Shown here: positions 7,521 through 30,440 of the stretch, piece by piece
How positions within the stretch are numbered: position 1 is the first letter of the stretch
Layout: each line of letters starts with the position of its first letter
Source of the DNA: Bellilinea caldifistulae
Lineage (GTDB): Bacteria > Chloroflexota > Anaerolineae > Anaerolineales > Anaerolineaceae
Direction: 5' to 3'
Length of the DNA: 32,000 nucleotides
Assembly (NCBI RefSeq): GCF_001306055.1
Contig: NZ_LGHJ01000011.1
Span: 30,001 to 62,000, forward strand
Translations under genes and position numbers: made by a program
Notes under the pieces: model-generated
Told to the model about the DNA's origin: nothing
What the model saw: the letters and a program-made list of their open reading frames with translations, nothing else
Database searches by the model: none

Positions 7521-7544
7521 TATCCAACAATGCTTGAAAAACCA

Positions 7545-8252: not shown

Positions 8253-8381
8253 TCCTTTATCACTCCTATTTTATGAATCAACATCATAGAATTTATTTCA
8301 TTATAGGAATAGCAACTTATCCATACAAGTACCCCTGGTCATAGAAGGTGGTATGACTTTCGGCATTAAGTAGATAACTGC

Positions 8382-8421: not shown

Positions 8422-8452
8422 TGTTTGGCTCGCTTCGGCACGCATACGGCGG

Positions 8453-12319: not shown

Positions 12320-12861
12320 TTCTTCTCCGCCAGAGGGACACGGTAGAAATACAGCCGCTTGGGTTCGCCCCAATTGACGCCCAGCGCCTTACCCACCTGA
12401 CCGGCTTCGATGTCGAACCACTCCCCGGCGTTCAGGATCGAGCGTTCCTCCACCTGCACCTTGCCGGGATTGCGCCCCAGAAGCGGGTCAACCAGGTTGG
12501 CCACCTTGCCGTTTTTGGCTTCCAGCGGCTTCAACAGCCGTTTCAGCCGGTCGGGTGAGAAGGGCGAGACCACCAGCCGGGTGGCATTGTCGGTCAAGAA
12601 CGAAACCGCCAGAGCCTCACCCTGCACCCGCTCCACCCCGGTCAGGGTCAGGTCAAGGTGCTGCCCCAGCCAGGCCAGCGGATTGTCCACCCTGACCGCC
12701 TGGCGCTGCTTCTCCCGCTTTTCGGCAACCTGCATCAGATACCAGTCGCTCAACACCTGCTCCATCTCCCGCAGGGCGGACGCCTGACGGGAGTTGTACA
12801 GGGTGAGGATGGCACCCAGCATCAGCACGGCTGCCAGTGTCGCTGCTGCCCATAAGTCCAT
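12316..12861 (-). CDS. Membrane-anchored hypothetical protein (181 aa)
   Basis: ATG at 12861 overlaps the TAA of the upstream adhesin gene by 1 nt. N-terminal TM LWAAATLAAVLMLGAILTLY. The upstream part of the 445-aa ORF-track entry overlaps the adhesin gene and is Arg/Gly/Pro-rich, so it is treated as a shadow ORF. Confidence 0.65.
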   Translation of the reverse strand: MDLWAAATLAAVLMLGAILTLYNSRQASALREMEQVLSDWYLMQVAEKREKQRQAVRVDNPLAWLGQHLDLTLTGVERVQGEALAVSFLTDNATRLVVSPFSPDRLKRLLKPLEAKNGKVANLVDPLLGRNPGKVQVEERSILNAGEWFDIEAGQVGKALGVNWGEPKRLYFYRVPLAEKK

Positions 12862-15800: not shown

Positions 15801-16187
15801 CACAATCAGGGACGCCCCAGCCCGGCACCAGCCGCCATTGCCCCATGTCGAACAGGCGAAACTGCCGCTAGCCGTCGCCGGGTTGTGAGTAACCGTAGTC
15901 GTCTGCTCACTTTCGTAGCAGGTGTACAACGCACCGTTGTTGTAGGGCACATCGCCGCAGAAGCAATAGTAGTCGTTGTCGCTGCACCGTTGACCGGGAC
16001 CGCCCATCCCGCAGCGGCATTCCAGCGTCCAGGGCGAGTTGCGATAAATCGAACGCACCCAACCGGTAACAACCTCCACCTGACGGGGTCGAATCGGGCC
16101 GGTGTAGGCGGCAATCGCCACCGTGACCGTTACCAATGCAACCGCCAACGCCACCAGGGGGGAGAGTTTGCCAGACCACCCTCGCAT
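12861..16187 (-). CDS. Large surface protein: signal/TM, Cys-rich N-domain, 8 Ig-like ~85-90-aa repeats, FlgD-Ig-like domain, T/P/E-rich stalk, C-terminal TM anchor
   Basis: GGGGAGG SD upstream of ATG 16187. Eight repeats fit the pattern D-x-x-x-P ... (N/Q)(G/D)WY-x-S-x-V ... D-x-x-SG(V/L) ... D-x-AGN ... (V/I)R(V/R), for example DTTPPTASLSLPPVDGQNGWYVSDVAVTAQGTDATSGVA...DNAGNSQTATATVRR. Then VQWDGKFPDGTQAVPGQYPVTVQVTD (FlgD-Ig-like), TPTPT/EEREE stalk repeats and the TM segment ALWPFLTLIGLAAALGYSAM. Confidence 0.85.
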   Translation of the reverse strand: MRGWSGKLSPLVALAVALVTVTVAIAAYTGPIRPRQVEVVTGWVRSIYRNSPWTLECRCGMGGPGQRCSDNDYYCFCGDVPYNNGALYTCYESEQTTTVTHNPATASGSFACSTWGNGGWCRAGASLIVSGSEPVSGYSITRMEGNYTGGNEAAVSCSGASCSFTPPQGQGTFWYWAVSSYGDTSAKNSLAYKFDSGAPSITPSLSGTAGQNGWYRSNVTVSATASDVVSGLYSLNNAAASGPGSLECISIPCTISADGITQIDLVAQDWAGNTSTTSVTVRKDSVAPWINFNPSGTPGEQDWYRSPVVLNVLAYDDTSGVAGLTLSCGSNPCNITTQGTTSVTATVSDVAGNTASDSITLRIDSVPPSVSLNESGPTINGIWYIGNVTVSASGSDPAPGSGFSHAIIRVNTGSWVNSPVTITTDGVHSINARTADVAGNYSNTIAATIRRDTVPPVASLNIPTPNGQNDWFTSNPTVSAGGTDATSGVAISQVRLNGGAWQSSAVIGTDGVHTVEGRAQDNAGHWSSTVSSTVRVDTTPPTASLSLPPVDGQNGWYVSDVAVTAQGTDATSGVASREARLGSGAWQPNGLTVSADGTHTVTVRVTDNAGNSQTATATVRRDATPPTINGLDVTGTAGNNGWYRSDVEVSGVASDATSGIVLVEVNGQPNLTLSDGVHSVLIRAVDEAGNQSTQAATVRVDTTPPVGAMTLSGEAGVEGWYRSAVEVSITGEDAVSGLAEARIGQSQGLGILSANETYEAEGWHTVIGEVEDKAGWVTEIRRSFGIDLTPPQGGFEALPELLSGTVELAGDASDALSGLLRLEISFSMGYQWQEIPFAADRWAYAWDTTQTGGGYKRLYLRLTDKAGNTYTTGVDVLVSNALPAAEITRLWVISESGQVSITPGDLPIRQVCLTIQDPADESRKVEWCGDSIEDIPNPVQWDGKFPDGTQAVPGQYPVTVQVTDIAGRTVTASGTVIIPAPTPTPTAEEREEATATKPLVIAVLPTATPTPTATPTQTPTEEEREEPTRTPPAVSVVLPTPQPTVAVKPPKIEVQAAVEVVRRALWPFLTLIGLAAALGYSAMRDERPKAIRKLAERMERIKDLQEVK

Positions 16188-16291: not shown

Positions 16292-16302
16292 CGCAAACCT
16301 CC

Positions 16303-16875: not shown

Positions 16876-16884
16876 CGCCGCACC

Positions 16885-17748
16885 TCAAAAGGCACTGAAC
16901 AGAGCCAGCAAAATCGGCAAGAGGATGGCCACCATGAAGGGCGCAAAGAAGAACACGGTCATCGGCATCAAGAGGGTGTTATCCAGACTAGCCGCCGCCA
17001 TCTGCACATGCGCCCGGTACTCACGGGCAAAGCCCCTTGCCACCTCGCTCATCACCCGCGGGCCTTCCACACCCTTGCCCGCCACCTGATCCAACTGCAC
17101 CCCAAAGCGCAAGAGGGCGGGCAGGTTGTACCTTGCCAGCACTTCCAGCACCACCCCCTCCGCCGTGCCGCTGGTGAAAGCCGGGCGTCCAGAGCGGGAC
17201 GATTCGGACACGGCTTCTTTGAGGATTTTCCCCAGCGGGCCGGGTATCTCCGCTGCCCGTGAGAGGGCCTGCTCCGGGCTTGCCCCGGCCGACATCTCCG
17301 CCGCCAGTGCAGTCGCCGTTTCGGGCATCAGCCGTTGAATCTCCGCCCGCGTGTCATTGGCAGCACTGCGTACCCGCAGGATGGGGTAGTAAGCGGCAAT
17401 TGGCACGGCCAGCCAGAAGATCGGCCCCGGTTGAGTCAAGAGCAGATAGACCAGCACCGCCCCGCCGTACACCAGACTGCGGGCAAGGATACCGCCCACC
17501 GTCCAGTCGGCGTACTTACCGCCCAACTGCGCCATCTTCAGGTGGTCAACAAGGCTCCCCGGACGGGTCTTGATGTACTGCTCGCCGTAGCGGTCAAAGG
17601 CGGACTGGTTACTGCCGTCCAGCATTCCGCTTACCCGCGCCGCCGCGCCCCGCTCGAACCGAATGGTCTTTGCCATGCGGTAGGCAAAGAATGCCGCCAG
17701 TGCCGCAAGGACAAGTGCCACGATTTGCCGTACCTGATATGCGTCCAT
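16885..17748 (-). CDS. tadC: TadC-like pilus assembly inner-membrane platform protein (GspF/T2SS-F domain)
   Basis: N-terminal TM, central soluble helical domain and C-terminal TM pair (LLMPMTVFFFAPFMVAILLPILLALF), typical of TadB/TadC. It follows tadA-tadB in the canonical order. ATG 17748 is 1 nt after the upstream stop (alternative TTG 17766). Confidence 0.75.
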   Translation of the reverse strand: MDAYQVRQIVALVLAALAAFFAYRMAKTIRFERGAAARVSGMLDGSNQSAFDRYGEQYIKTRPGSLVDHLKMAQLGGKYADWTVGGILARSLVYGGAVLVYLLLTQPGPIFWLAVPIAAYYPILRVRSAANDTRAEIQRLMPETATALAAEMSAGASPEQALSRAAEIPGPLGKILKEAVSESSRSGRPAFTSGTAEGVVLEVLARYNLPALLRFGVQLDQVAGKGVEGPRVMSEVARGFAREYRAHVQMAAASLDNTLLMPMTVFFFAPFMVAILLPILLALFSAF

Positions 17749-17749
17749 C

Positions 17750-18682
17750 TCAAAATGCCTCGTCAATCAGTTTGTTCATAAAGCCCCAGCCGAACAGCAT
17801 CAGCAGGATGATTCCGGCATACGCCAGCTGCACAATCGGCTGCTGGACGGTGGCCGCCAGAGCCTCATTCCGCAGAATCAAGACCATCACAAAGGCCGTG
17901 ATTCCGGCAATCAGGCGCACGCTGCCTTTGGCACTCTTGCCGGTCGCCTGTCCCAAGACCCGCGCATCCAGCACGCCTTCCAGATTCTTGCTGGCCATCT
18001 CGAAGGCCGTCTCCCACTCCTTGCCGCCCGTCCGCCACAAGCGTCCCAGCAGAAAGACCACAATCCCCAAACTAGACGAAAGACCGAACGCTTCACGGGT
18101 CAACCCGTCCAATGCCTCGAAGCCTTCCCGCTGACAGCGCGGCAGGAACTCATCCCGCAGCCAGGTCTGCAATGCCCCACCCGCTTGCAATGTCCGCAGT
18201 TCATCCTCTACCGCTTGCAGGACGTTCGGCGTGACCTGCACGGTAGAAGATAGCCCGGTCAGAAACAGCGGGATTTCCTTCTCGATGTCCTGTTTGACCT
18301 GCGCCCAGGCCCCGTCAATCAGGCCGTTGAACAAAATCCAGCCACCCGCGAAACCAATCAGGCTGGTCAGGGTCGGCAGTCCCAAGACCGTGTTCAGGAC
18401 GATGAACACCGCCACCCCCGCCGCAATGCGGGCGACATCGCGGGCAAAGCGTTCCCGCCCGGCCACATCCAGCCCCAACTTGCGAAACGCCAGCCGCAAG
18501 CGGTGGGCTTCACTGCCGAAAGCCACTTTTTCTTCCTGCTGCTGGATACCGGTCAGGGCGGCCACCCGACTCTCCGCCCGGCTGCGCAGCTGCAAACCCA
18601 CTGCCAGCCGGTAGGCGATGAACGCCACCGCTCCCGCACCCACCAGCGGTACTACCTGCCGCACAATCGCCATCGCTTCCAT
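17750..18682 (-). CDS. tadB: TadB-like pilus assembly inner-membrane platform protein (GspF/T2SS-F domain)
   Basis: ATG 18682 with AGGAGG 5 nt upstream. TM-soluble-TM architecture similar to the next gene. It lies immediately downstream of the CpaF/TadA ATPase. Confidence 0.75.
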   Translation of the reverse strand: MEAMAIVRQVVPLVGAGAVAFIAYRLAVGLQLRSRAESRVAALTGIQQQEEKVAFGSEAHRLRLAFRKLGLDVAGRERFARDVARIAAGVAVFIVLNTVLGLPTLTSLIGFAGGWILFNGLIDGAWAQVKQDIEKEIPLFLTGLSSTVQVTPNVLQAVEDELRTLQAGGALQTWLRDEFLPRCQREGFEALDGLTREAFGLSSSLGIVVFLLGRLWRTGGKEWETAFEMASKNLEGVLDARVLGQATGKSAKGSVRLIAGITAFVMVLILRNEALAATVQQPIVQLAYAGIILLMLFGWGFMNKLIDEAF

Positions 18683-18684
18683 GC

Positions 18685-19929
18685 CTACCTCCTGCTCACC
18701 GGCTTCATGCTCTTGTCGCCAAAGGCGTACAACTGCTCGAACGCCACATTGCCGCCTTTGAGTTCGGATTGAATCTCCCACACGCCAATCAGGCGGCGTT
18801 TGTCGCCGCTGCGGGGAACGCCCACCTGCACCAGCACCTCGATACCCTGGGCAATCAGGTCTTTGGCGTTCATCCGCTCGATTTTGGCGTCCACACCCAT
18901 GATCAACGCCATGCGGGATACCATCGCCTCCGGGCCTTCGGCGTGGAAGGTCGAAAGTCCGGGATGGTCACTCATTTGCGCCCGGAACAGGGCTGCGGCG
19001 GCATCGCCGGTACGCACTTCGCCCACGATCAACCACTTGGGGGACATCCGCATGGCGTCATCTACGCCGTGCCGCAGGGTATAGTCCTGCACGCTGGTAC
19101 TGCCCAGGGGGGCTTTGCGGGCTTCGATGGTGACCACATGCGGGTGTTCCATCCAGATTTCCTCCGGGTCTTCGATTTTGACCACCCGCGCATCCTTCGG
19201 GATGGCGTTGCACATCGCCGAGAGAAAGGTCGTCTTGCCGCTGGCCGTCCCGCCGATGACCAGCATCCGCACGCCACGACTGACCGCTGCAAGCAAATCG
19301 GCGATGACATTCTCCGGGGCTACCTGCCACTCGATCAGTTTCTCCGGTTTGACCGGCGCAGGCTCGAACAGGCGGATATTGACCGAATACATGCCCGCCC
19401 GTGAAGGGACGATGGCAGGGTGCAGCACATGCACCCGCGCCCCGCCTTTCAGTCCCGGCAGCGATTCAATCCGGGGCAGTTTTGCGCTCACGGTAGGTAA
19501 TGCCTCGCTGATGCCTCTACCGGTAGGACGCAGCAACGCCTCTACCATCCGCCCACAAGATTGCTGGTCGAGGTTCATCTCCACCGGCGAAAACTGTACT
19601 GCCCCCTTTTTGAGGACAAATACCTTGCCTTCCGGGGTGATGGTGATTTCCGAAAGGTCATCCCGCCGCAGAAGCGGCAGCAACGCCCCCAGTCCGTTGA
19701 CCCGTCCCACTACCTTCTCCGCCAGGGACAGCATCACATCGCGGGGGACATCCAGCCTGCGGCGGGCCAGCACTTCGCCCACCGCCCCTACCGCCCGCTG
19801 GTTGAGGGTGTCCACATCCACCATCTGGCGGAAGGTCAGGCCATTGGCCAGGTCGTTAGCAGCGTCTTGAATGACCAGTTCCTGCTCGTCCGCCGAAAGC
19901 GTTACCTGCTGAAAGAAGTCCCACGACAT
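18685..19929 (-). CDS. tadA: CpaF/TadA-type pilus assembly ATPase (VirB11/GspE superfamily)
   Basis: Walker A LVIGGTASGKTTFL, then ARVVKIEDPEEI (Asp box), Walker B-like WLIVGEVR, and His box STFHA. The length (~414 aa) is typical for CpaF. Confidence 0.92.
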   Translation of the reverse strand: MSWDFFQQVTLSADEQELVIQDAANDLANGLTFRQMVDVDTLNQRAVGAVGEVLARRRLDVPRDVMLSLAEKVVGRVNGLGALLPLLRRDDLSEITITPEGKVFVLKKGAVQFSPVEMNLDQQSCGRMVEALLRPTGRGISEALPTVSAKLPRIESLPGLKGGARVHVLHPAIVPSRAGMYSVNIRLFEPAPVKPEKLIEWQVAPENVIADLLAAVSRGVRMLVIGGTASGKTTFLSAMCNAIPKDARVVKIEDPEEIWMEHPHVVTIEARKAPLGSTSVQDYTLRHGVDDAMRMSPKWLIVGEVRTGDAAAALFRAQMSDHPGLSTFHAEGPEAMVSRMALIMGVDAKIERMNAKDLIAQGIEVLVQVGVPRSGDKRRLIGVWEIQSELKGGNVAFEQLYAFGDKSMKPVSRR

Positions 19930-19932: not shown

Positions 19933-21225
19933 TCACCCCTTGCGAATGCGAATCGGCCCCAGTTTCACCACACCTGCATCACTGCGAAAGCCGTTATCGC
20001 TGGTTTTCTGCCCGAACAGCAAATCGCCCAACTTGTGAATCGGACGGGCAAAGTTCTCCGATGCGGTGAGTACGGAACGCCCGGCGTTAGCCGTTACCGC
20101 TACTTCGGGTATCTCCGGTATCACCGCCGTGACCGGCGGGAAGGCGGTCAGTCCGGCGGATTGAGCGAACGCCCGTGCCGCCTCGTGCCACTCGTTCATG
20201 CCGAGCAGCCCATTGCGCCCCCGATTCAAGACCACAAACACATTGGACGCCCCAACCCGGTGCTGCCCGGCGAGTTTCTGGAACACCACCCGGTAGGCTT
20301 CCGCCGTGATGACCGCATGGTCAATCGTGGGGTTGGAGACCAGTACCAGCGTGTTACTGGCACTGATCGCCGAGGGATAACAACCCGAAACGGGCGTGTC
20401 GAAAATAATCACGGCATAGCCGCCGTAGGTGGCGGCAATCGCCAGGCTGTTGATACTGCTCTGCTCTTCCGGTTTTTGCAGCAAGTCCTTCTCCCGCAGG
20501 CTGTCCTGCAAACCCACCAGCACATCCAGCCCGCCAAACGACTGCACTGCCGGTTGTATGCCGTCCGCAAAGGTCGGACGGGACAGCCACAGGGACAGGT
20601 TCGGGGTGGTTTTCAGGTTCAGGAAGGTGGGCAGGGACACATCCGGCGCGCTCAACCCCACCAGCAGGGTCTTGAAGCCCCGCTGGGCAGCGTCCAGCGC
20701 CAGCGCGGTAGCAATCGTACTTTTGCCCGTCCCGCCAGCCCGGTTCCACACCGTAATCACCCGCAGCCCGCCGATGGTGGTGGCGGTCTGCTGCCAGCGT
20801 GCCTGTCCTGCCAGGGCCGGAGCTTGCGAGCGCAGCGCCCCGATTTCCGCCATGATGCGGGCGGACAGGTCGGGGATATTGACATCCCCCACGAACACAC
20901 CCTTGACGCTGGTCATCTCCCGAATCGGGCGGATGATTTCATCCGGCACGCCGCCGGGCAAGACCACATACGCCGCTCCCTGCACGCGGGTCAGGAATTG
21001 GGTCAGCGGTTCCGGCCCGCTGAAAATCGCCGCATCCAGCAGGATGACTTCGGGGTTGTAGGACAGTTTGGCCTGCAAGTCCTGCGGGTCGGTCGCCAGC
21101 GTCACCACCCGAAAGCGGCTGTCCATCTGGAACGCCTGACTCCACACCCCCAGGCGGCTGGGCGGCCCCGCCAGCAGCAGGGTCACGGCATCCTGATTGC
21201 TCTCGTTACTCGTTCCCCATGCCAT
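19933..21225 (-). CDS. tadZ: TadZ/CpaE-like protein: N-terminal receiver-like domain + ParA/MinD-type ATPase
   Basis: ATG 21225 with GAGGTGG SD. The N-terminal ~120 aa are CheY-like (VTLLLAG...VILLDAAI). The deviant Walker A is VWNRAGGTGKSTIATALA. It sits between cpaB and tadA, as in Tad loci. Confidence 0.8.
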   Translation of the reverse strand: MAWGTSNESNQDAVTLLLAGPPSRLGVWSQAFQMDSRFRVVTLATDPQDLQAKLSYNPEVILLDAAIFSGPEPLTQFLTRVQGAAYVVLPGGVPDEIIRPIREMTSVKGVFVGDVNIPDLSARIMAEIGALRSQAPALAGQARWQQTATTIGGLRVITVWNRAGGTGKSTIATALALDAAQRGFKTLLVGLSAPDVSLPTFLNLKTTPNLSLWLSRPTFADGIQPAVQSFGGLDVLVGLQDSLREKDLLQKPEEQSSINSLAIAATYGGYAVIIFDTPVSGCYPSAISASNTLVLVSNPTIDHAVITAEAYRVVFQKLAGQHRVGASNVFVVLNRGRNGLLGMNEWHEAARAFAQSAGLTAFPPVTAVIPEIPEVAVTANAGRSVLTASENFARPIHKLGDLLFGQKTSDNGFRSDAGVVKLGPIRIRKG

Positions 21226-21239
21226 AGCCCACCTCGTTG

Positions 21240-22079
21240 TTACTGCCCGGCTGCAAAGCCCAGCGGGGTCGGCGTGGGGGTCGGGGTCATCTGACGGATG
21301 ACCAGTTCCGGCAGCCACAAGCCGCTTGTGTTCATCGGTTGGGCCTCGTCCGGCATCAGATACAGCGACAATTTGACATTGTCAGCCTGGTCGAGGGCGG
21401 AGAGCAGTTCCACCGCATTGACCAGCCGTACGGCGGTGGTGGCTTCAATGCCCGATGATTGGAAGTCGTACACGACTGCCTGCGCTTTGGCAGGCACGGC
21501 CAGCACCACCACGCCCTCTTTGCTGCGCTGCCGCTGCACGGCGATGCCGGTCTGCGGGTCGGGGGTGATGATTCGTCCGGCGGCTTCCGCCGGGTCTTCC
21601 GCCTGAAAACTCGGCTGGATGTACAGCACCCGCAGGTTCTCTACGGTTGCCTTGCTGAATACGCCCTGCACGGTGTAGTCGCCGTCCGTCAGGACGGCGG
21701 TCACGCCCACCCGGTCACCGGGGCGGATGATGCCTGCCAGCCCCGCCGAATCACTCACCTGGATGGCCACCGCCCGCTCGTCCGGCTGCAAGGTAACCGG
21801 CTTTTCGCCCAGATGAGCGGTCAGAATCAGGTCGCCTGCACTGCGGTCAATCCGCAGGGCTTGACCCACTGCTTGGGAAGGGTCGGTAATTGCCCCTTCC
21901 GGCGGCAGCAAGTCCGCCGGGACGCCCTTCATCACCAGGTCACCCTCCGTCAGGATATGACCGGCAGGCAGGTCAACGGCAGCAACCGCCACCTGCGTCT
22001 GCTCGGGCGGACGCAGCATGGCTAACGCCACAAAGAAAACCAATGCGGCTAACAGGTAGGGTAGGTATTTCTTAATCAC
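21240..22079 (-). CDS. cpaB: CpaB/RcpC-like Flp pilus assembly protein (SAF + RcpC domains) with C-terminal TPTPTP tail
   Basis: N-terminal TM YLPYLLAALVFFVALAML, followed by VAVAAVDLPAGHILTEGDLVMKGVP (SAF-like). GTG start 22079 forms a GTGA overlap with the upstream stop. Confidence 0.85.
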   Translation of the reverse strand: MIKKYLPYLLAALVFFVALAMLRPPEQTQVAVAAVDLPAGHILTEGDLVMKGVPADLLPPEGAITDPSQAVGQALRIDRSAGDLILTAHLGEKPVTLQPDERAVAIQVSDSAGLAGIIRPGDRVGVTAVLTDGDYTVQGVFSKATVENLRVLYIQPSFQAEDPAEAAGRIITPDPQTGIAVQRQRSKEGVVVLAVPAKAQAVVYDFQSSGIEATTAVRLVNAVELLSALDQADNVKLSLYLMPDEAQPMNTSGLWLPELVIRQMTPTPTPTPLGFAAGQ

Positions 22080-22276
22080 GCTTCACCTCGCAGATATTGA
22101 TTTGCGCCATCGTAGATGGCCAGTGCCTCACCGAACTCACGCAAATCACAATGCACCACCCGCTGCCTGCTGCCGTCCTTTTCCGTGACAATCAACAGGA
22201 CATACTGCGGCTGAATCGGGATGGCGTTCACGATTTCGCTCAATGGAATGCGTTGATTTCGGTCTTGCTCGTTCAT
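22076..22276 (-). CDS. Small hypothetical protein (66 aa)
   Basis: ATG 22276 forms an ATGA overlap with the upstream stop. Product MNEQDRNQRIPLSEIVNAIPIQPQYVLLIVTEKDGSRQRVVHCDLREFGEALAIYDGANQYLRGEA looks soluble. The longer 111-aa ORF-track version overlaps the upstream gene. Confidence 0.5.
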   Translation of the reverse strand: MNEQDRNQRIPLSEIVNAIPIQPQYVLLIVTEKDGSRQRVVHCDLREFGEALAIYDGANQYLRGEA

Positions 22277-22524
22277 TTTGCTTTCGTCTCCGTAACGGTT
22301 GGGGTAACGGTTAGTGTCGGTTTGGGGGTCGGGGTCTTGATCTCCGTCCACCACTGCGTCCGTTCCACCTGCGGAACGGGCGTATTGGTCGAAAGAAACA
22401 CGCCCCGCCATACGGTTGCGGTGGCCAGCGGCTGCCAGCGTTCGCCGCTCATTCCCTCGCTCACCAGCAGGATGACCGCCACCATCAGCACGAAAACCAA
22501 AAGCGGTACGAAGGCTTTGCTCAC
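22273..22524 (-). CDS. Small membrane-anchored protein with T/P-rich tail (83 aa)
   Basis: GTG 22524 forms a GTGA overlap with the ATPase stop, with GGGGAGGA 7 nt upstream. TM segment FVPLLVFVLMVAVILLV. C-terminal TPTPKPTLTVTPTVTE. Confidence 0.55.
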   Translation of the reverse strand: MSKAFVPLLVFVLMVAVILLVSEGMSGERWQPLATATVWRGVFLSTNTPVPQVERTQWWTEIKTPTPKPTLTVTPTVTETKAK

Positions 22525-25500
22525 AGCGTTATCCTCCCCAGTTTCTCGGCAATCTCCGCATCGGTCGGCTCCGGTACGTCCAGCATCAGCGGACGGAACA
22601 GAATCGGCAGCTGCATCTCGCGGCTGTGGGCATACGGGAAACGCCCGATCACCATCCCGATATGCTCATCCGCCAGAAACCGCCGCCAGGGTTCGTCCAC
22701 GAAGCCCTTTTCGCTTCTCGCAATCGCCGAAAGCACGATGTCCTTGTCTTTGGGGGTTTTCAGAAAGCCCACCACCAGGTTGTTGCAGGATGAGATGATG
22801 CCCGAAGGGATGAGTGAGGGGCTTTGGGTCACCACCCCAAAGTACGCCCCGTACTTCCTCGAATCCCGGAACATATTGCTGTACTGCTCGCCCACCGTTG
22901 GCGCGCTTCTGCCCTCTGTGGCATCTCCGCCGCCTTCCAGCCCGGTGAAGATGATGTTGGCCTCTTCAAACACCATGAACAAATCCGCTTCACCCCGGTT
23001 GATTTGCTTCTCCCGCCGGGCCACCATGTCGGAGTAAATCAGCCAGCCCGCCCAGCCCAAGAGCCAGGCTTTGGCGAAGTTGTCCAGAAACTTGCCGCCT
23101 TCCAGCACCACCACGCCGTTGGGTCGGCCCAAGTCCTCTACCGGTATCGCATCCGCTCCGGGCTGGAACTGCGCCGCCGGTGCGCCCCGCACCAGCGACT
23201 TCAACCGCCACAGGATACCTTCCAGCACGCCCCGCCCTACCTGGTCGCGCGGGTTGAGCGAGTCGTATTCCCGCTCGATCTCCTCGTACAGGTCGCCCAG
23301 CCCCACCCGCTTGCTGCGCTCCACCGCCACTCTTTGGCGGTCATCCGCCGAGAGGTCGCCCAGGGGTGTGCCTTCCACCAGCCCCAGCCGGGCGGCTTCC
23401 TCCGCCGAAACCCGCCCGTACTGCGGGTCAGCCCGCACCAGCGGGTCGTCCACCATCACACCCACGCTCAGATACACCCGCCGCACCGCATCCAGCAGGC
23501 GGTGCTGCTGTTGTTTCTGCCCTAACTGCGCCACACTGCCGAAAATATCGGCAAAGGCTTTCAGTTGCGTCTCCGGGTTGATGTATGTCCCGATTTGCAG
23601 CGGGTTCCAGCGCAAAGGTCGGACGCCATCGGGACGCAGTTGGCGGATGTCCACCCGCCCTTCCAGTCCGGGGGCATTCAGCAAACTGCGCCAGGCAAAG
23701 CCAAAGTCCAGCACCACCACCCGCATGTTCCAGCGGTAGGCAATCTCATACGCCATCCGCACCGCCGCCACGCTCTTGCCCCAGCCGGTATCCCCGGCAA
23801 ACATGGTGTGCATCAGGCGGGGCTTGTCCAGTCTGACCGGCGCATTGGTCAGGTCGGCGGTATTCGGGCTGTACTGGTGCCCCAGTACCACCTCGCCGGG
23901 CATTTTCGGGTAGAAGCCCATCCCGTCCGGGATCGGGGCAATCACTTTCAGCGTGCCTTCCTGCAAGAGAGAGGGTGCGACATACGCCGCCACCTTGTCC
24001 GCCGGGAGCAGGCTGGCGTAGCGCCAGAACAACCAGCCATCGAAGGGGTCGTGCGGGTCGTTCGTCCTCGCCTTGAACGGCACGAACGCCCGTGCCGCTT
24101 CCATGACCGCCTCTCTCTCCGCCTCCGGCGGTTCGGCGGTCAAGACCGGCGTGGGTGCGCCCTCGCCGTAGAAGGCTTCCGGCACGAGGCTTGCCGCTGC
24201 CACCGCCGCCCGCTCCGAGTCGGTCAGCAGGTAGGCACTGGTCACAAAGCCCCCCGAATGAGTTGCCGTGTTCAACAGCCCCTCGAAGCCCCGCAGGATT
24301 TCCGTCAGCCGTTCGGCCACATCGTCCTCCACCTGCCAGGTGCGGTTGAGGTTGATCGCCGGGGCCAGCCCGTAGGTCAGCCCCGCCCCGGCGGTCTGTG
24401 CGCCGATACTCGAGCGGGTCTGTCCGTAGGCATCCGTCTCACCGTAGCCCCTGCCAAACCCCTGACTGCGGGTGTGCGCTTCGCCAGTGGTGTTGGTCTC
24501 GCTGTTCATGGTCGTGACCACCCGGCTGGTCGAGCGTGACCAGCCGCTGCTCTCCACCACCCCTTGCGAGGTGGCATTGCCAACCGTCTGTCCCGTGCCG
24601 CGACTCTCACCCGTGCCGGTCGTCCAGCTCTCGCCGGTGGTGTCCGCCCGTCCGTGCATCTCGCTGGTGGACTGGAAACTGCCCGATGAGGCAAACTGGC
24701 TCTGGCTTTGGGTCAGGTTCCACGATTCGCTCACGCCCATCCCGCCGCCCAGGTCGATCTTGGCCACCCCCACGTTGATTCCGCCACCGGCGTTGACGGA
24801 CTGGTTGAGGCTCGTCCCATGTCCCAAAGCCCAGCCGCTCCCGCTGCCCGCCGTCTGGCTCGTCCCGCTCGAACTGCCCCATGCGCTCGATTCGGTCTGG
24901 CTCTGCATCCGGCTGTGGCTCTGCATGGTGCTTTGGGCCTGCATGGTACTCTGACTCTCCATCTGGCTCGTCCCCTGCATCACGCTGCGGCTGCCCGATT
25001 CGCTCTCCGATTCGCCCAGACTCACGCTCGACCCTCTCGTGACCGAGTGCGAACGGCTCTCCGTGTCCGCCTCGCCCCAGTTCTGATTCCAGGCTTCCGC
25101 CTGACTGTGGGCGTGGCTGTCTGCCCGTCCGCCCGCTCCCGAATAGCCGTGCGCCAATGCGTTGAAAATCGGGATACCCACCGAAAAGCCGATGGACTTG
25201 CTGCCCTTGCGCCGGGAGGCGTAATTGCTGGCAATCCGTGCCATCTGCTCCAGGTCCCGCACCAGTTCCCCGCGCGGCACATGGTCGCTGACCACCTGAA
25301 AGACAAAGTTCTCCCGCAGTTTTGCCAGTCCTCTGAACAGAATCTCGTTCTGCTCGATGGCCAGGTCGTCCGCTTCTTCCGGCAGTGCGCCGTCTCGTCC
25401 CGTCCCCCGCCGTTTCACTCTCGGGTCGGGGTGGCCGAGTAACGCCAGCGGTTTCCTCGCACTGCTCAAAAACTCGACATACCAGCGGATGATGTCCAGA

Positions 25501-25895
25501 TCCGGCGCTCTCAATTGCGATTGGGCAAAGCCCGCCAGGGTCGCTTCGACCGCCGCCGCATCCCGCTCGGCTCTGCTAATCCCCGCCGCCACCGATTCGG
25601 CGGACACCGCCGCTCCGTACAACTGCACGATTCCGATGTGGTCGGGCTGGAAGATACCCAGTGCCGAATAGACGAAGTTCACCCCGGCGTTGTACAGCCC
25701 GGTGATGGCTGCCCACTGCTTGCCGAGTATCCCTTCACCCGCCTGCCGCCGGTTCTGCGGGTCGTCCGTGATGGCGGTCAGTTCCCGCAGGACGGCCACC
25801 CGGTAGTACCGCCGTCCGTCCTCGTCCACCAGACACCAGGCGGCGTGAAAGTGGCCGTTCCTGCTCTCGATGCCGTTGTCCAGTATTCGCAGCAT
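22521..25895 (-). CDS. 1124-aa P-loop ATPase of the HerA/FtsK/VirB4/T4CP type, with unknown N-domain and a ~250-aa S/T/G/Q low-complexity insertion
   Basis: GGAGG SD upstream of ATG 25895. Walker A is FAGDTGWGKS (aa 699-708). It is followed by VVVLDFG...RPLRWNPLQIG, which resembles the NPL motif of coupling proteins. Walker B is ADLFMVFEEAN (aa ~970-980), followed by FRDSRKYGAYFGVVTQSPS (HerA/VirB4-like arginine-finger/sensor region). aa ~252-505 are extremely Ser/Thr/Gly/Gln-rich. Confidence 0.9.
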   Translation of the reverse strand: MLRILDNGIESRNGHFHAAWCLVDEDGRRYYRVAVLRELTAITDDPQNRRQAGEGILGKQWAAITGLYNAGVNFVYSALGIFQPDHIGIVQLYGAAVSAESVAAGISRAERDAAAVEATLAGFAQSQLRAPDLDIIRWYVEFLSSARKPLALLGHPDPRVKRRGTGRDGALPEEADDLAIEQNEILFRGLAKLRENFVFQVVSDHVPRGELVRDLEQMARIASNYASRRKGSKSIGFSVGIPIFNALAHGYSGAGGRADSHAHSQAEAWNQNWGEADTESRSHSVTRGSSVSLGESESESGSRSVMQGTSQMESQSTMQAQSTMQSHSRMQSQTESSAWGSSSGTSQTAGSGSGWALGHGTSLNQSVNAGGGINVGVAKIDLGGGMGVSESWNLTQSQSQFASSGSFQSTSEMHGRADTTGESWTTGTGESRGTGQTVGNATSQGVVESSGWSRSTSRVVTTMNSETNTTGEAHTRSQGFGRGYGETDAYGQTRSSIGAQTAGAGLTYGLAPAINLNRTWQVEDDVAERLTEILRGFEGLLNTATHSGGFVTSAYLLTDSERAAVAAASLVPEAFYGEGAPTPVLTAEPPEAEREAVMEAARAFVPFKARTNDPHDPFDGWLFWRYASLLPADKVAAYVAPSLLQEGTLKVIAPIPDGMGFYPKMPGEVVLGHQYSPNTADLTNAPVRLDKPRLMHTMFAGDTGWGKSVAAVRMAYEIAYRWNMRVVVLDFGFAWRSLLNAPGLEGRVDIRQLRPDGVRPLRWNPLQIGTYINPETQLKAFADIFGSVAQLGQKQQQHRLLDAVRRVYLSVGVMVDDPLVRADPQYGRVSAEEAARLGLVEGTPLGDLSADDRQRVAVERSKRVGLGDLYEEIEREYDSLNPRDQVGRGVLEGILWRLKSLVRGAPAAQFQPGADAIPVEDLGRPNGVVVLEGGKFLDNFAKAWLLGWAGWLIYSDMVARREKQINRGEADLFMVFEEANIIFTGLEGGGDATEGRSAPTVGEQYSNMFRDSRKYGAYFGVVTQSPSLIPSGIISSCNNLVVGFLKTPKDKDIVLSAIARSEKGFVDEPWRRFLADEHIGMVIGRFPYAHSREMQLPILFRPLMLDVPEPTDAEIAEKLGRITL

Positions 25896-25898: not shown

Positions 25899-26498
25899 TT
25901 ACCTCCGCTCCCATTCAAGGTTGTATAACCGTCCACTCCGTTTCTCCTCTTTGAGAAAGATGGTCGTCAGCCGCGCTTGCGGAGGTATGATTTCCGTGAC
26001 GATCTCATCCACCAGACGGTATTCCCGCGCTTGTTCCGGCAAAAGCGTCACCGTGCGGGACAAATCCGCCTCGACTTTTTCCAGCGTCTGGCCGGTTGAC
26101 TCGGCCAGCACCCGACAGATATTGCGCTGGTCGCTTTCCAGTTCGGTCAGGATGTTCCGCAACTGGTCGCCGGTGTAATTGCCCTCTTCCAGATGGGTTC
26201 GGATACCGTGTAGTAAAAAGCGCGTTTGCGGCGCAGCCAGCCGCCTTTTCCCGGCGCAGTACAACACCACCCCTATTGAATCCACTTGACCGATGTTGTA
26301 TGTCCACACTTCTATCGGCAGCCCCCTCATCAAGGCGTACAGCGTCAGGCCGTATGAAACCGATCCGCCCGGTGTGGAAAGCAGCAAATGCAACCGCTCC
26401 ACCCCTTCCAGTACGGCGTTTTGGAAAATCTCCACCAATAGTCCAAAACTCTCGCCGTTCACCGCTGAAAGAAACTGAATCCAGCGCTCTCCTCTCAT
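25899..26498 (-). CDS. ClpP/crotonase-fold serine peptidase (ClpP- or SDH-like)
   Basis: Aligns by eye to E. coli ClpP: LLLSTPGGSVSYGLTLYALM with YINSPGGVITAGMSIYDTM; IGQVDSIGVVLYCAG with MGQAASMGAFLLTAG (nucleophile Ser); and TRFLLHGI with SRVMIHQP (His). C-terminal EYRLVDEIV matches EYGLVDSIL. Confidence 0.8.
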   Translation of the reverse strand: MRGERWIQFLSAVNGESFGLLVEIFQNAVLEGVERLHLLLSTPGGSVSYGLTLYALMRGLPIEVWTYNIGQVDSIGVVLYCAGKRRLAAPQTRFLLHGIRTHLEEGNYTGDQLRNILTELESDQRNICRVLAESTGQTLEKVEADLSRTVTLLPEQAREYRLVDEIVTEIIPPQARLTTIFLKEEKRSGRLYNLEWERR

Positions 26499-26501: not shown

Positions 26502-27065
26502 TTACCTCCGCTCCCTTGCCCGCTCGATGACCGTGCGGGGGTCTGCCCCGGTTGGAGCGTGCGCCAGCAGGTTCTTGATCAGCAGCCCTGCCTGCACTAC
26601 CGGCATCCCCCACAGCGCAAAGCCCGCCAGCACCGCCAGATAATTCACCCCGGCGATGAGATTGTCCGCCGCTTGGTTGTCCAATGCCCAGAACAACACC
26701 CGTGCGCCCAGTCCCACCAGGGCGTACAGGATGAGGTTCTGAATCGTCTCCCACGCCGATTCGTCCGGGCGGTAGTTGTCCACCCGCATCACGAAGCCGC
26801 CCACTCCCGCCAGCCCTGCCATGAGGTAAGGGGCAGGGTTAGGCGCAATGAGCGCCGCCGCCAGTGCCAGCCCGCCGGCGGGCAGCAGCACCTGCCGCAT
26901 CCGCCGCGCCTGCGCTTCCTGCAAACGCTGACCCAGCAGCAGGTACAGCCACACCAGCGCCGGGATGAGCAGCACCAGCGCAAGGTTGTCCACTGCCAGC
27001 CAGACCAGCGCCAGCAGGCCGTTCAAGACCCACACCAAAGGCAAAAGCAGCGTGTCCGGACTCAT
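26502..27065 (-). CDS. Polytopic membrane protein (187 aa), unknown family
   Basis: Five to six hydrophobic helices (LLLPLVWVLNGLLALVWLAV, LALVLLIPALVWLYLLL, LALAAALIAPNPAPYLMAGLAGVGGFVM, ...). Tight spacing to both neighbours. Confidence 0.7.
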   Translation of the reverse strand: MSPDTLLLPLVWVLNGLLALVWLAVDNLALVLLIPALVWLYLLLGQRLQEAQARRMRQVLLPAGGLALAAALIAPNPAPYLMAGLAGVGGFVMRVDNYRPDESAWETIQNLILYALVGLGARVLFWALDNQAADNLIAGVNYLAVLAGFALWGMPVVQAGLLIKNLLAHAPTGADPRTVIERARERR

Positions 27066-27074: not shown

Positions 27075-28427
27075 TTACTTGATGATGGTGGTCATCATCA
27101 GGTAGGCGTCAAATTCGCCTGCCGGTATCTGGAACGAACGGGACTGTGATACCGGCGTGCCGCTGGTAATGCCCGAAAGTGTCATGGCGTAAAAGCCGGG
27201 GTCACGAATCTGCACCTTTTCCTGTACCAGCGTCCAGCGGAAGGTGTTGGACGCATCGCAGCCCTGACTGGTGGCATAGCGCCAGTTCCAGTCCGGGCGG
27301 ATGAGGGTTGCCCCCGGATACCACTGGGCCAGGTCGTTCAAAATCCAGTCCCGGCTGGACTTTTTCAGGCTCGCCGAAGCCAGCACCCGCGCCTGTTCGC
27401 AGAAGGTCTGTTCGTGCAGGACGCAGTACTCGACTTCTTCCTCTTCCTCGACATACCGGTTGGGGGCTTTGCAGTTGTCCTTGATGGGCGGCGGCAGTTC
27501 CACAAGGCTGCCGTTGGGGGCGATACAGCGTTTGTTGACCTCTTTGCGTTCTTCCAGCGTGTAGTAGCGGAAGATGGTCGGCTCGATGGTCAGGCTGAAT
27601 TGCAAATCCACCCCGCGCTTCTCCGGGTCTTGGCCGGTCACGATGGCGTAATTGGGGGCGGTCTTGACCGCCGTGCCGCTGATCCTGCCCTGCGTTACGC
27701 TCGGCGCACCGCATTTCTGCACCACCCTGTCCGGCGTGGGTGTCCTGCCGGGGATGTTGCCGTCCGGACACAGGGACGGCGGACATTGCCCCCGCCGCCG
27801 CAGTTCGTCTAGCAGGGCCTGCGGACAGCCGGTCGGCGAGTTCTGGCAGGATGAGTACAGCAGCATTACCCGGTAGAAGTTGTTGTCCTGGTTTGCAGCA
27901 CGCCTCAGAATGTCAAAGAGATTCCACGCATCGCTTTCTTTCAACACAGACCAGGCGTCTTTGCCCTGAATGATCGCATCCGCCAACTCTCTGGCGTAGG
28001 GCAGGTTCAGGACTTGCAGGACGGCGGCAATCACATCTCTGCCGCTCATGTTGCCCCCAACGATGTCGCCAACCCCCCAGATTGCATACCCCAGTCCTGT
28101 CCCCACCGAACCGTCCGAATTGACCAACCCCGATTCACGCGGGTTCATCGCCATGAAGAACAGGGTCGTGGCCGATGGCAGCAAGACGCTCTCCCCGCTC
28201 GGCAGGGCGTACATATGGTAGGTCGCTGCCCCGTCATAAATCCAGTCCGGTACCCACGCAGGCGCATCCGGCATCCAGTCCGCCGGAACTTTCTGCTCAC
28301 CCAAATCCACCACGCCCGCTTTGAGGTTGCCGTTTTCGTCAAAGAAGTCGCCCCAATCGGCTCTGGCGGGTTGAATGTTCACCGCCAACAGAACGAACAA
28401 GAGGACTGCGTACATCACCCGCTTCAT
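27075..28427 (-). CDS. Secreted Cys-rich protein (450 aa), unknown family
   Basis: Sec-type signal MKRVMYAVLLFVLLAVNIQPARA/DW. About 12 cysteines, several in close pairs (CQNSPTGC, CPPSLC). ATG 28427 forms an ATGA overlap with the upstream stop. Confidence 0.75.
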   Translation of the reverse strand: MKRVMYAVLLFVLLAVNIQPARADWGDFFDENGNLKAGVVDLGEQKVPADWMPDAPAWVPDWIYDGAATYHMYALPSGESVLLPSATTLFFMAMNPRESGLVNSDGSVGTGLGYAIWGVGDIVGGNMSGRDVIAAVLQVLNLPYARELADAIIQGKDAWSVLKESDAWNLFDILRRAANQDNNFYRVMLLYSSCQNSPTGCPQALLDELRRRGQCPPSLCPDGNIPGRTPTPDRVVQKCGAPSVTQGRISGTAVKTAPNYAIVTGQDPEKRGVDLQFSLTIEPTIFRYYTLEERKEVNKRCIAPNGSLVELPPPIKDNCKAPNRYVEEEEEVEYCVLHEQTFCEQARVLASASLKKSSRDWILNDLAQWYPGATLIRPDWNWRYATSQGCDASNTFRWTLVQEKVQIRDPGFYAMTLSGITSGTPVSQSRSFQIPAGEFDAYLMMTTIIK

Positions 28428-28933
28428 GGCTCAGCCTCCAACGCCTGCAATTCCTGCTCGAACAGAAAATGGTCGAATTTCCATTCGCCGTTCTCTCGCA
28501 CCACCAGTACCGGTATCTCGCCCCCTTTTTCCTCGCCGGTGTTCAGGTCTCGGATCGTCCCCGTGACCATCCACACCTGCCGCTCGCCCAAATCCTTACG
28601 CAGTTCCGCCGACTGCACCCGGTACTCGCTGCGCGCTTTGGTCTCCACCACCCTGTCCCAATTGGTGAACAGTTCGGCGAAGGCACAGCCGTTCTCGGTG
28701 GCCACCGCACACACCGATTGCAGCCAGGCATCGTAGCCGGTGGTCACATCCACCGAAAACAACGCCGTGAGACCGGCGATGGCGGCTTCCCGTCCGTCCG
28801 GGACGGGGGTGGGTTCGGGTTCTGCCTGGGCGGTAGTGAACATCGGCAGGATAAACCGCACGGCGGCAATTGCCGCAAAGACCACCAGCAGGATGACTAA
28901 CCCTCTTTTGACGGTTGACAGTTTGATTTCCAC
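28424..28933 (-). CDS. N-terminally membrane-anchored protein (169 aa), first gene of the operon
   Basis: GTG 28933 with GGAGG 6 nt upstream. TM LVILLVVFAAIAAVRFILPMF, then a P/E linker (AEPEPTPVPDG) and a ~120-aa globular domain. Confidence 0.7.
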   Translation of the reverse strand: MEIKLSTVKRGLVILLVVFAAIAAVRFILPMFTTAQAEPEPTPVPDGREAAIAGLTALFSVDVTTGYDAWLQSVCAVATENGCAFAELFTNWDRVVETKARSEYRVQSAELRKDLGERQVWMVTGTIRDLNTGEEKGGEIPVLVVRENGEWKFDHFLFEQELQALEAEP

Positions 28934-30416: not shown

Positions 30417-30440
30417 GTTGTGTATAGAGTATTACACAAC
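30417..30440. promoter_or_regulatory. Palindromic operator candidate upstream of vapB
   Basis: GTTGTGTA-TAGAGTAT-TACACAAC is an 8-bp perfect inverted repeat with an 8-nt AT-rich spacer. It abuts the vapB SD and spans the stop codon of the upstream gene. Confidence 0.4.

Follow-up and report, generated by a model that had tools for sequence, protein, structure and literature searches.

Ring translocases of the HerA/FtsK/VirB4 type drive DNA repair, chromosome segregation, conjugation, virus packaging and phage defence. To our knowledge, those which have been characterised reach the membrane through helices or partner proteins in every case. Here we describe an ATPase of 1124 residues from Bellilinea caldifistulae, a member of the Anaerolineae, a group abundant in anaerobic digesters, sediments and hot springs. 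It is encoded at 22521-25895 on the minus strand of a 32,000-nucleotide stretch (the window; contig NZ_LGHJ01000011.1, positions 30,001 to 62,000). In this protein, a HerA-type motor is joined to a long, strictly alternating segment which we read as a giant beta-hairpin, and its gene lies in a cluster of the Tad/Flp pilus type.

The closest structural relatives of the motor are HerA translocases. HerA chains (PDB 4d2i and 9x1m, and the HerA proteins of defence systems) are the best match to residues ~560-1124, with E values of 4.5e-11 to 1e-8 over 450-520 columns, and have the Walker A and B and the RKYG/TQSPS motifs in common with it. However, the identity is only 12-18%, and the matched chains leave both the N-terminal domain of 245 residues and the putative hairpin of 277 residues uncovered. 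Furthermore, our ATPase is embedded in a Tad cluster and lacks a NurA, SIR2 or DUF4297 partner.

With respect to a possible function, the nearest precedents are HerA/FtsK-type hexamers which pump DNA from donor cells, namely TdtA in Thermus and TraB in Streptomyces; TdtA works alongside a type IV pilus-dependent uptake system (PMC5365140). TdtA (from ICEth1 of Thermus thermophilus) and TraB are membrane-associated ring ATPases of the same superfamily as our protein; their genes lie on integrative or conjugative elements, and they need no classical type IV secretion system for exporting DNA (PMC5365140). In contrast to our ATPase, TdtA has a mass of about 64 kDa, a NurA neighbour and neither a hairpin nor the N-terminal domain (PMC5365140). 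TraB differs from our protein by transmembrane (TM) helices and a winged helix-turn-helix domain.

Protein family and domain layout

The open reading frame (ORF) begins with an ATG whose position agrees with the start of 120 homologues in the alignment. It is a new member of the NCBIfam family NF033849 (ser_rich_anae_1, 'serine-rich protein'), which is already catalogued but uncharacterised. Membership is clear (1187.4 bits, E = 0, cutoff 650); the model itself supplies only a descriptive name, and the homologue from Anaerolinea thermophila carries the same name, 'serine-rich protein', at NCBI. A protein search against 5.8 billion sequences returned 223 matches, the best 120 of which are 1048-1257 residues long and cover the whole query. 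The named members come from Bellilinea (89% identity), A. thermophila (51%) and metagenome-assembled genomes (MAGs) assigned to Anaerolineaceae or 'Chloroflexota'. With one genome per species scanned, 62 loci came to light, nearly all of them in Anaerolineae-type Chloroflexota, with two to four copies of the locus in several genomes. The NF033849-type protein is restricted essentially to these organisms.

The protein consists of three parts: an N-terminal alpha/beta domain (residues 1-245), the alternating segment (residues 246-522) and a HerA-clade P-loop module (residues 523-1124). The AlphaFold2 (AF2) model, which was built on an alignment of 82 sequences, is confident for residues 1 to ~230 (predicted local distance difference test, pLDDT, >90) and for residues 520-1124; the middle part has a pLDDT of 30-40. 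An earlier note, written from the letters of this DNA without database searches, had pointed out a large ATPase ORF without a TM segment. The ORF is real, with the motifs quoted there located at residues 699-1027, and no alpha-helical TM segment is predicted (the highest Kyte-Doolittle mean over 19 residues is 1.37).

The alternating segment

Throughout residues 246-522 (277 residues; 24330..25160, minus strand) small residues alternate strictly with residues of another kind, hereafter called X. The 138 small positions are occupied to 95% by G/S/A/T/N/M/C and contain no charge at all; every one of the 43 charged residues, every Trp and the only Pro are found at the 139 X positions. Taken together, all 56 D/E/K/R/H/W/Y/P residues are in register (28:0 in residues 246-381, 0:28 in residues 382-522). 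The register score of 326 compares with 86.9 +/- 16.7 in 1000 composition-preserving shuffles (z = 14.3), and across the family 6860 residues of these types are in register versus 151 which are not. The autocorrelation of S/T is positive at all even and negative at all odd lags, and up to distances of over 60 residues two Trp residues are nearly always an even number of positions apart. Since beta-strands characteristically show such a two-residue period, the segment is taken to form beta structure.

The module is retained at 32% identity and in 62 of 62 full-length representatives of the N-domain family. Its length varies from 205 to 410 residues in close relatives and reaches 768 in distant ones. 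The latter figure is that of P0244 from the representative library (1660 residues), in which residues 330-1097 form two arms of 384 residues each, composed almost entirely of G-x-S-x-S-x hexapeptides. The Gly autocorrelation in this protein is 0.43-0.46 at lags 6, 12 and 18, and its X face bears few charges and many V/I/F; thus the surface chemistry of the presumed stalk is not uniform across the family. A left-handed beta-helix was considered for these hexapeptides. The interior pattern of such a helix is at positions 1/5; the small invariant class here is at positions 2/4/6, and the antiparallel pairing of the arms contradicts a helix as well.

The earlier note had seen in this region an insert of almost pure Ser/Thr/Gly/Gln/Glu between residues 252 and 505, with short reiterations and a recurrent motif of small residues and Trp. 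The bias is real, but 'almost pure' overstates it, as these residues make up about 63% (residues 251-505: S 20%, G 16.5%, T 11%, Q 8%, A 8%, E 6%), and the patterned segment extends on both sides, to residues 246 and 522. Pro accounts for 0.3% and Cys for 0% of the segment. The reiterations are present (SQMESQSTMQAQSTMQSHSRMQSQ at residues 310-333), and so are the Trp motifs; Trp makes up 2.8% of the segment versus 1.8% of the remainder and, without exception, stands at an X position, within the context E-[S/G/N]-W-[G/S/A]-[E/Q/H]. A conserved Trp periodicity, in contrast, was not borne out. Column-conserved Trp residues occur only at the boundaries (W273 in 112 and W520 in 114 of 121 sequences) and, in part, at W355 (65/121). 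The even spacing of the Trp residues is a consequence of the register, and the motif is a by-product of the small/X alternation. An origin of the segment by DNA slippage was also considered; Tandem Repeats Finder detected only one weak array of four 9-bp units and no tandem repeat underlying residues 246-522.

Pairing of the two arms

Viterbi segmentation of the register finds a single, central phase break in most sequences; in our protein it lies at about residue 382, inside NAGGGINVGVAKIDLGGGMGV. This break divides the segment into arm A (residues 246 to ~375; 24771..25160, minus strand), which keeps one parity throughout, and arm B (residues ~376 to 522; 24330..24770, minus strand), which has the opposite parity. 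The arms comprise about 125 residues in our protein and 90-384 in its relatives. Their lengths correlate (r = 0.88, 69 sequences) and, when determined without an alignment, increase in lockstep: 133/160, 137/164, 143/170, 149/176, 153/180, 159/186, 163/190 and 173/200. In distant representatives the two arms are of virtually the same length (384/384, 231/230, 189/189, 236/235 and 192/191).

Insertions and deletions are mirrored as well. In subfamily 1, the gap blocks in arm A and arm B measure 36/36, 26/26, 20/20, 16/16, 10/10 and 0/0, and the units exchanged are modules of ten residues, HTDSRSESWA in arm A facing GSADTHGTSV in arm B. In the subfamily of our protein, residues 314-325 are missing together with residues 430-441 from P0005 (12/12), and residues 312-329 together with residues 424-441 from P0006, P0007, P0009 and P0010 (18/18); relative to our protein P0011 lacks 24/24, P0012 18/18 and P0014 32/32 residues. 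The mirrored coordinates add up to 753-755. The SQMESQSTMQAQSTMQSHSRMQSQ reiteration (residues 310-333; 24897..24968, minus strand) contains the lineage-specific extension of arm A, residues 312-329, and the corresponding extension of arm B, WTTGTGESRGTGQTVGNA (residues 424-441; 24573..24626, minus strand), is lost jointly with it in relatives. From these mirrored indels it follows that the STMQAQ-type reiteration is a recent extension of arm A, matched by 18 residues in arm B.

The charges single out one register. In 88 non-redundant inserts, antiparallel pairing at shift 0 brings together 752 opposite and 96 same charges, a ratio of 7.8, whereas the ratio is 0.5-1.4 in the 80 other registers within +/-80. 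The best antiparallel register has the identical offset from the anchors in 79 of the 88 inserts, although their lengths range from 205 to 410 residues. Each third of the arms, proximal, middle and distal, shows the peak on its own, and at the neighbouring registers same-charge pairs accumulate. In our protein the pairing joins residues whose numbers i and j add up to 749-751, and small residues then face small ones and X residues face X in 124 of 129 pairs. AF2, albeit at low confidence, drew the identical pairing (strands 256-314 with 437-495, i + j = 751). These sequence patterns indicate that residues 246-522 almost certainly form a giant antiparallel two-stranded beta-hairpin, the geometry of which is under selection.

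Two other arrangements were examined. A zipper of Trp-Trp pairs across the strands is not apparent, the count at the best register being 1.57 versus 1.53 in shuffles. The register scan within +/-80 likewise gave no second contact of the kind that a coiled ribbon or a two-start solenoid would have, bearing in mind that charge pairing sees charged contacts only. Of the three structural ideas in the earlier note, the beta-solenoid was thus right as to ordered beta structure and wrong as to its form, which is a single antiparallel pairing of two arms. The disordered tether is contradicted by a strict register which leaves one face free of charge, by indels that compensate each other at mirrored positions and by charges that match in one register only. 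Neutral low-complexity expansion fares no better: its predicted signs, a hypervariable insert and the lack of conserved Trp spacing, are both observed, yet they do not imply neutrality here, as the variation is structured into paired indels and is the opposite of neutral drift. The insertion was rightly called unusual; no HerA, VirB4 or FtsK structure or model which was matched covers it.

The hairpin tip

The tip zone comprises residues 363-394 (24714..24809, minus strand) with NAGGGINVGVAKIDLGGGMGV (residues 368-388) as its core. On its X face it is hydrophobic or Gly/Ala, with a charged K/D turn in the middle. The same zonation is found in the 88 sequences. Up to 15 residues from the centre, hydrophobic residues make up 43-52%, Gly/Ala 25-36% and charged residues 10-13% of the X face; from 20 to 65 residues it consists mainly of S/T/N/Q; and more than 70 residues away 36-46% of the positions are charged, which amounts to a salt-bridge ladder. 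About a dozen positions at the base form acid-base pairs in most sequences. Besides the ladder the X face also bears aliphatic residues, Trp and His. No charge is found on the small face along the entire hairpin. Fully stretched out, arms of ~125 residues would reach about 33-42 nm, and the family range of 90-384 residues would correspond to about 25-125 nm.

The stems of beta-barrel pore-forming toxins such as alpha-haemolysin and the anthrax protective antigen are likewise amphipathic and Gly-rich with a strict in/out alternation, and they too turn through charged residues, with an outer face that is hydrophobic towards the tip. In these toxins each subunit of the ring contributes a hairpin to a common barrel; for our protein a barrel is only a proposal. 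The scale also differs, with about 15-35 residues per strand in the toxins versus 90-384 per arm here. Moreover, pore-forming toxins insert from outside the cell, whereas our ATPase has no signal peptide.

The ATPase module and the N-terminal domain

The C-terminal part of the protein was described in the earlier note as a translocase-type P-loop ATPase with a core beginning at about residue 690. The assignment holds, with intact Walker motifs and HerA as the best match, but the module begins at about residue 523 and extends to residue 1124 (22524..24329, minus strand; AF2, Foldseek and family profile). AF2 places beta-strands at residues 549-700 ahead of Walker A, which may correspond to the HAS-barrel of HerA proteins, and the Foldseek alignments cover nearly whole HerA chains. 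Walker A is FAGDTGWGKS at residues 699-708 (23772..23801, minus strand), with GxxGxGKS at residues 701-708 and G704, G706 and K707 invariant; Walker B is LFMVFEEAN at residues 972-980 (22956..22982, minus strand), with E977, E978, A979 and N980 invariant. The motif RWNPLQIG is found at residues 762-769. The stretch MFRDSRKYGAYFGVVTQSPS (MFRDSRKYG...VVTQSPS, residues 1008-1027; 22815..22874, minus strand) aligns to HerA in all sequence searches, contains the invariant residues R1010, D1011, R1013, K1014, Y1015 and Q1024 and is probably the Arg-finger/sensor region. Invariance was judged over 82 sequences. As the Lys of Walker A, the two Glu of Walker B and R1010, R1013, K1014, Y1015 and Q1024 are invariant, the ATPase looks catalytically competent.

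The earlier note had left the choice between HerA, VirB4 and coupling proteins undecided; our searches favour the first of these. Foldseek with the C-terminal region returned HerA proteins at ranks 1-40, led by the HerA-NurA complex of T. kodakarensis (E = 4.5e-11) and including S. solfataricus HerA and the SIR2-HerA, DUF4297-HerA and TdpAB complexes, whereas VirB4/TrwK, which belong to the same superfamily, follow from rank 41 (E = 3.5e-8). The family profile matched exclusively HerA/DUF87 chains in the PDB at E <= 0.01, and no VirB4, FtsK or VirD4. At the sequence level the relationship is distant: a PADLOC HerA model matches with E = 1.7e-9, Pfam DUF87 (PF01935) with E = 0.0027 and 18.3 bits, under the cutoff of 23.2, and the NCBIfam HerA models with 10-23 bits versus cutoffs of 800-970. 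A distant family member has a precomputed PF01935 match. As regards VirB4, the TrbE model gave E = 0.16 and 9.9 bits against a cutoff of 1020, there was no VirB4 match in Pfam or NCBIfam, and VirB3, VirB6 or VirB8 genes were not among the neighbours in the annotated loci. FtsK/SpoIIIE/TraB proteins are not supported either (no FtsK match in Pfam, no TM helix, no FtsK chain in the profile search), and no VirD4/TraG coupling protein was matched in Pfam, NCBIfam or the PDB. According to the structural model and these searches, the core most probably belongs to the HerA clade rather than to VirB4 or the coupling proteins. None of the characterised ATPase families matched has a hairpin module of this kind.

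The N-terminal domain (residues 1-245; 25161..25895, minus strand) is a family-specific alpha/beta domain which AF2 models with a pLDDT >90. That nothing recognisable is found in the first ~250 residues, as the earlier note had stated, was confirmed: Pfam, NCBIfam, PHROGs and PADLOC gave no match, and Foldseek found no neighbour in the PDB or BFVD at E <= 0.001 (best PDB entry E = 0.12). The similarity to the N-terminal domain of VirB4 is weak and not significant (E about 1.1, probability 0.28, Foldseek). In a search of 1.84 billion cluster representatives the domain profile hit only 264 clusters, in which all complete proteins are 1018-1761 residues long. The domain is an orphan fold.

Gene neighbourhood

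In the window CpaB/RcpC, TadZ, TadA and TadB/TadC are found together according to Pfam, i. e. a Tad/Flp cluster is present, and the comparison with 35 related loci of at least 20 kb demonstrates that the ATPase is a core component of an Anaerolineae-specific gene cluster of the Tad type. All genes named in this paragraph are on the minus strand. The gene directly downstream of the ATPase encodes an 83-residue protein with a single TM segment (22273..22524), and small genes occupy the same position in all annotated loci. It is followed by CpaB/RcpC with SAF and RcpC domains (21240..22079, kept in 34/35 loci), a ParA-like ATPase of the TadZ/CpaE type (19933..21318, 35/35), the secretion ATPase TadA/CpaF (T2SSE; 18685..19929, 35/35), a TM-rich, TadB-like platform protein without a Pfam match (17750..18781, 31/35) and a TadC-like platform protein (T2SSF; 16885..17766, 32/35). 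The end of the cluster is marked by a protein of 1108 residues with an N-terminal hydrophobic segment (residues 5-32) and Big_13/FlgD_ig domains (12861..16187), present in 16/35 loci. Upstream, a polytopic membrane protein of 187 residues with about four TM segments (26502..27065) immediately precedes the ATPase in 33/35 loci and is the candidate membrane partner. Further upstream are a 450-residue protein with an N-terminal hydrophobic segment (27075..28427, 20/35 loci) and a 169-residue protein with one N-terminal TM segment (28424..28933, 15/35).

Tad genes also accompany more distant members. CpaB follows the member with 32% identity, another has a TadZ-like gene, and upstream of a third lie TadE, a TadG-like gene and two Flp genes. 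Among related loci an A24 peptidase was seen as well as Flp, TadE and TadG-like genes; a regular-expression scan of the window revealed no convincing Flp pilin. Tad systems of Chloroflexota are devoid of secretins, which fits a monoderm envelope (PMC12488501).

In the window a gene for a ClpP-like serine protease (25899..26498, minus strand) lies between the membrane protein and the ATPase; the ATPase gene is co-directional with it and begins 4 bp 3' of it. This gene appears to be accessory. It is not at this position in the Bellilinea relative and follows TadA in A. thermophila and in one other locus. Its best matches are ClpP subunits, well under the family cutoffs, and phage head-maturation proteases, which it resembles; no ClpX or ClpA partner is encoded near it. 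The protease might process a component of the cluster. A prophage origin, which the PHROG matches could suggest, was rejected, as capsid, portal and terminase genes are absent from the window and the position of the gene varies.

Mobile-element context

Hallmarks of mobile elements were found within 10 kb in 6-7 of the 10 annotated loci. One locus has an integrase, toxin-antitoxin genes and an ImmA-like regulator, another an integrase and transposases, and a third an integrase, several toxin-antitoxin pairs and an amidase. Others carry DnaB and a faint match to Replic_Relax, DnaG primase and RecD2 helicase, or SSB and a ParM-like actin; locus L070 has HNH, IS605 and an RHS toxin. No integrase was found in the window itself.

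Divergent copies of the ATPase plus Tad cluster exist within one genome in A. thermolimosa (L004 and L033), MAG BS750m-G45 (L009, L013, L014 and L035) and MAG-07r (L027 and L036). Such copies could be machines related as paralogues, or could reflect several mobile elements residing in one genome.

Possible function

The analysis establishes how the domains are arranged, that the segment has a beta-register with paired arms, what its tip is composed of, which genes accompany the ATPase and how narrowly the family is distributed among taxa. On this basis, the best explanation in our opinion, with a probability of roughly one half, is that the N-terminal domain, the giant hairpin and the HerA-clade motor act together as the motor of a transfer apparatus in which the hairpin is a stalk or conduit. 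How the protein oligomerises, whether a tube or stalk forms and enters the membrane, what is transported and in which direction are inferences within this reading, which runs as follows. Because the hairpin returns the chain to its starting point, the N-terminal domain and the ATPase could form one globular head from which the hairpin projects outward. By analogy with other HerA proteins this head would oligomerise as a HerA-type hexamer. The six hairpins could then associate through their charge-free small faces to a stalk or tube, either packed or lining a narrow lumen, and the hydrophobic tip would engage the membrane. Together with the adjacent four-TM protein and the secretin-less Tad/Flp machinery, the ATPase may constitute an ATP-driven translocation motor of an apparatus for transfer across the cell envelope. 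The cargo would most probably be DNA, which would be exported, since the cluster often appears to ride on integrative elements and HerA/FtsK-type hexamers are known pumps for DNA donation.

Several points weigh against this explanation. With a pLDDT of 30-40 over the hairpin there is no confident three-dimensional model of it. The covariation of the paired positions is modest (mean mutual information 0.142 at the register versus about 0.10 at slid registers), and acid-base swaps in both orientations occur at only two basal positions; the charge signal therefore rests largely on conserved pairs, and the case for the pairing on the co-variation of arm lengths, the mirrored indels and the single charge register. 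A straight stalk of 30-125 nm is hard to reconcile with a cytoplasmic protein without a signal peptide, albeit higher-order folding is possible. A 12-stranded barrel would let single-stranded DNA or unfolded protein pass but would be too narrow for double-stranded DNA. The locus of the closest relative, from Bellilinea, is flanked on one side by ordinary chromosomal genes, so mobility is not universal, and neither a relaxase of a Pfam family nor a NurA nuclease was seen in the annotated contexts. Finally, the literature searched contained no experiment on any family member and no paper on the NF033849 family, its accession, or a cluster of Tad and HerA genes.

Other explanations start from the segment itself. 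A disordered low-complexity linker which expands neutrally and tethers the N-terminal domain to the ATPase could be suspected from the low pLDDT of 30-40, from the hypervariable length (205-410 residues, up to 768 in distant relatives) and from the poor conservation of most columns, Trp positions included. FtsK and SpoIIIE likewise have a segment of variable length and biased composition between the anchor and the ring translocase. However, the FtsK linker is Pro/Gln-rich and regarded as flexible, whereas the segment here has a beta-register, paired arms and a Pro content of 0.3%, which is atypical of such linkers. As its register is strict with a charge-free face (z = 14.3), as indels of equal length are mirrored in two subfamilies, as only one register is charge-complementary and as there is no tandem repeat at the DNA level, a disordered linker is highly improbable, and the disordered and the neutral readings are those most clearly rejected by the evidence. 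Just as improbable is the idea that the Ser-rich alternation mainly serves as a substrate for dense O-glycosylation or phosphorylation, giving an extended modified rod like the (S-X)n stretches of serine-rich-repeat adhesins. It would account for the (S/T/G)-X periodicity, and there are weak NCBIfam matches to ClfA/ClfB over SD-repeat-like sequence and a glycosyltransferase gene near one distant member. Yet these matches reach 9-15 bits versus cutoffs of 999-1150, the N-terminus has no hydrophobic segment, the C-terminus is an ATPase, and a signal peptide, a sortase motif and accessory Sec genes are missing; Gly and Ala share the 'Ser' positions, and the mirrored indels and the single antiparallel register would be left unexplained. 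Somewhat better, though still improbable, is a silk- or amyloid-like module whose hairpins self-assemble into a stacked cross-beta scaffold or matrix instead of a discrete hexameric stalk. Silk packs in a similar way through alternating residues with a G/S/A face, charges never occur on the small face, which hence must be buried against something, and P0244 with its (G-x-S-x-S-x)n repeats would fit well. The exact pairing of the arms and the three zones (charged base, polar middle, hydrophobic tip) rather suggest a defined object of set length, and in every case the module connects the same pair of globular parts of the ATPase.

The remaining explanations concern the system in which the ATPase works. 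It is unlikely, but worth considering, that it serves the Tad pilus itself, as an extra motor, ruler or anchor for assembly, retraction or export of the Ig-domain protein, with the hairpin as a distance-setting spacer. This would agree with the near-universal synteny with CpaB, TadZ, TadA, TadB and TadC, with the large Ig protein at the end of the cluster in 16/35 loci and with the chromosomal genes on one side of the Bellilinea locus, and further envelope components are to be expected in the secretin-less Tad systems of Chloroflexota (PMC12488501). HerA-fold ATPases are not known as pilus motors, however, the cluster already contains TadA, and mobile-element contexts are frequent. An ATPase of an anti-phage or conflict system on mobile islands, similar to SIR2-HerA or DUF4297-HerA and with the ClpP-like protease or other neighbours as effectors, is quite improbable. 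PADLOC HerA models are the best sequence matches, HerA complexes of defence systems are among the best PDB matches, and the surroundings are rich in toxin-antitoxin genes, bear integrases and have RHS toxins nearby; but the matches are weak, concern only the P-loop core and never attain a family cutoff. Moreover, neither the window nor the Pfam-annotated neighbours in the 10 loci include a NurA, SIR2 or DUF4297 partner, the constant partners are the Tad genes and the membrane protein, and the ClpP-like gene varies in presence and position. The most far-reaching version of the conduit is improbable too, slightly more so than the silk-like scaffold. Here the six hairpins would form a coaxial, 12-stranded, hydroxyl-lined beta-nanotube of 25-100 nm with a toxin-like tip in the membrane, which together with the Tad pilus would serve as an ATP-driven conduit for single-stranded DNA or unfolded protein across the envelope or between the cells of a filament.

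A motor fused to a beta-hairpin whose arms comprise 90-384 residues each would represent a novel kind of architecture. A hairpin which lengthens by matched insertions in both strands would rank among the longest regular beta-hairpins inferred. The new element is the hairpin module with its constant coupling to Tad genes, for which neither the families matched nor the literature searched offered a counterpart. That the ATPase is constantly paired with a Tad system devoid of secretins and apparently often carried on integrative elements suggests an undescribed route of horizontal gene or protein transfer; the literature searched did not turn up any conjugation machinery of Anaerolineae. Should the nanotube exist, it would be a previously unrecognised conjugation or injection apparatus on integrative elements of multicellular Chloroflexota. 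The sequence rules, i. e. the small/X alternation, the salt-bridge ladder and the extension by 6 or 10 residues, could serve in designing beta-ribbons or nanotubes of programmable length. Should the function turn out to be mundane, the uninformative database name 'serine-rich protein' is still replaced by a structural model that can be tested.

Further observations

Two ORFs, 8917-10185 and 30432-31202 (both on the minus strand), flank the cluster on opposite sides. In A. thermophila, A. thermolimosa, T. daxensis and others, tblastn places both in one upstream region, and they may share a domain or be paralogues; ORF 8917-10185 has weak Pfam matches of the coiled-coil type. In one subfamily, a protein of 650-690 residues with faint WD40/beta-propeller matches is encoded about 2.5-4 kb upstream of the ATPase (L001 5615-7615, L003 4440-6404, L069 5477-7558), whereas the subfamily of the window has the 169- and 450-residue proteins instead. 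A membrane methyltransferase of the ICMT/PEMT type follows TadC in L002 (19122-19688), L003 (19620-20258), L066 (19578-20147) and L071 (22661-23209). The ORF at the equivalent position in the window (16199-16888, minus strand) has no match in Pfam, NCBIfam or PHROGs. In L070 a gene for an IS605 OrfB/Cas12f-like TnpB (14734-16044, minus strand) lies between CpaB and TadZ.

Nearly all credible genes between 8.9 and 32 kb of the window are on the minus strand, and the GC skew is negative in almost all 1-kb bins of positions 1-32000. Many long ORFs on the plus strand overlap the minus-strand genes and were judged to be artefacts of the high GC content. At its other end the window contains an RHS-repeat protein of 1692 residues (RHS_repeat, CBM60, DUF6443; 4-5082, plus strand), followed by a stretch of low GC content at 5000-8500 (39-42% versus about 62% elsewhere), which looks like a polymorphic-toxin locus with downstream cassettes. 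In L070, an RHS/YD-shell toxin gene adjoins the Tad-HerA cluster.

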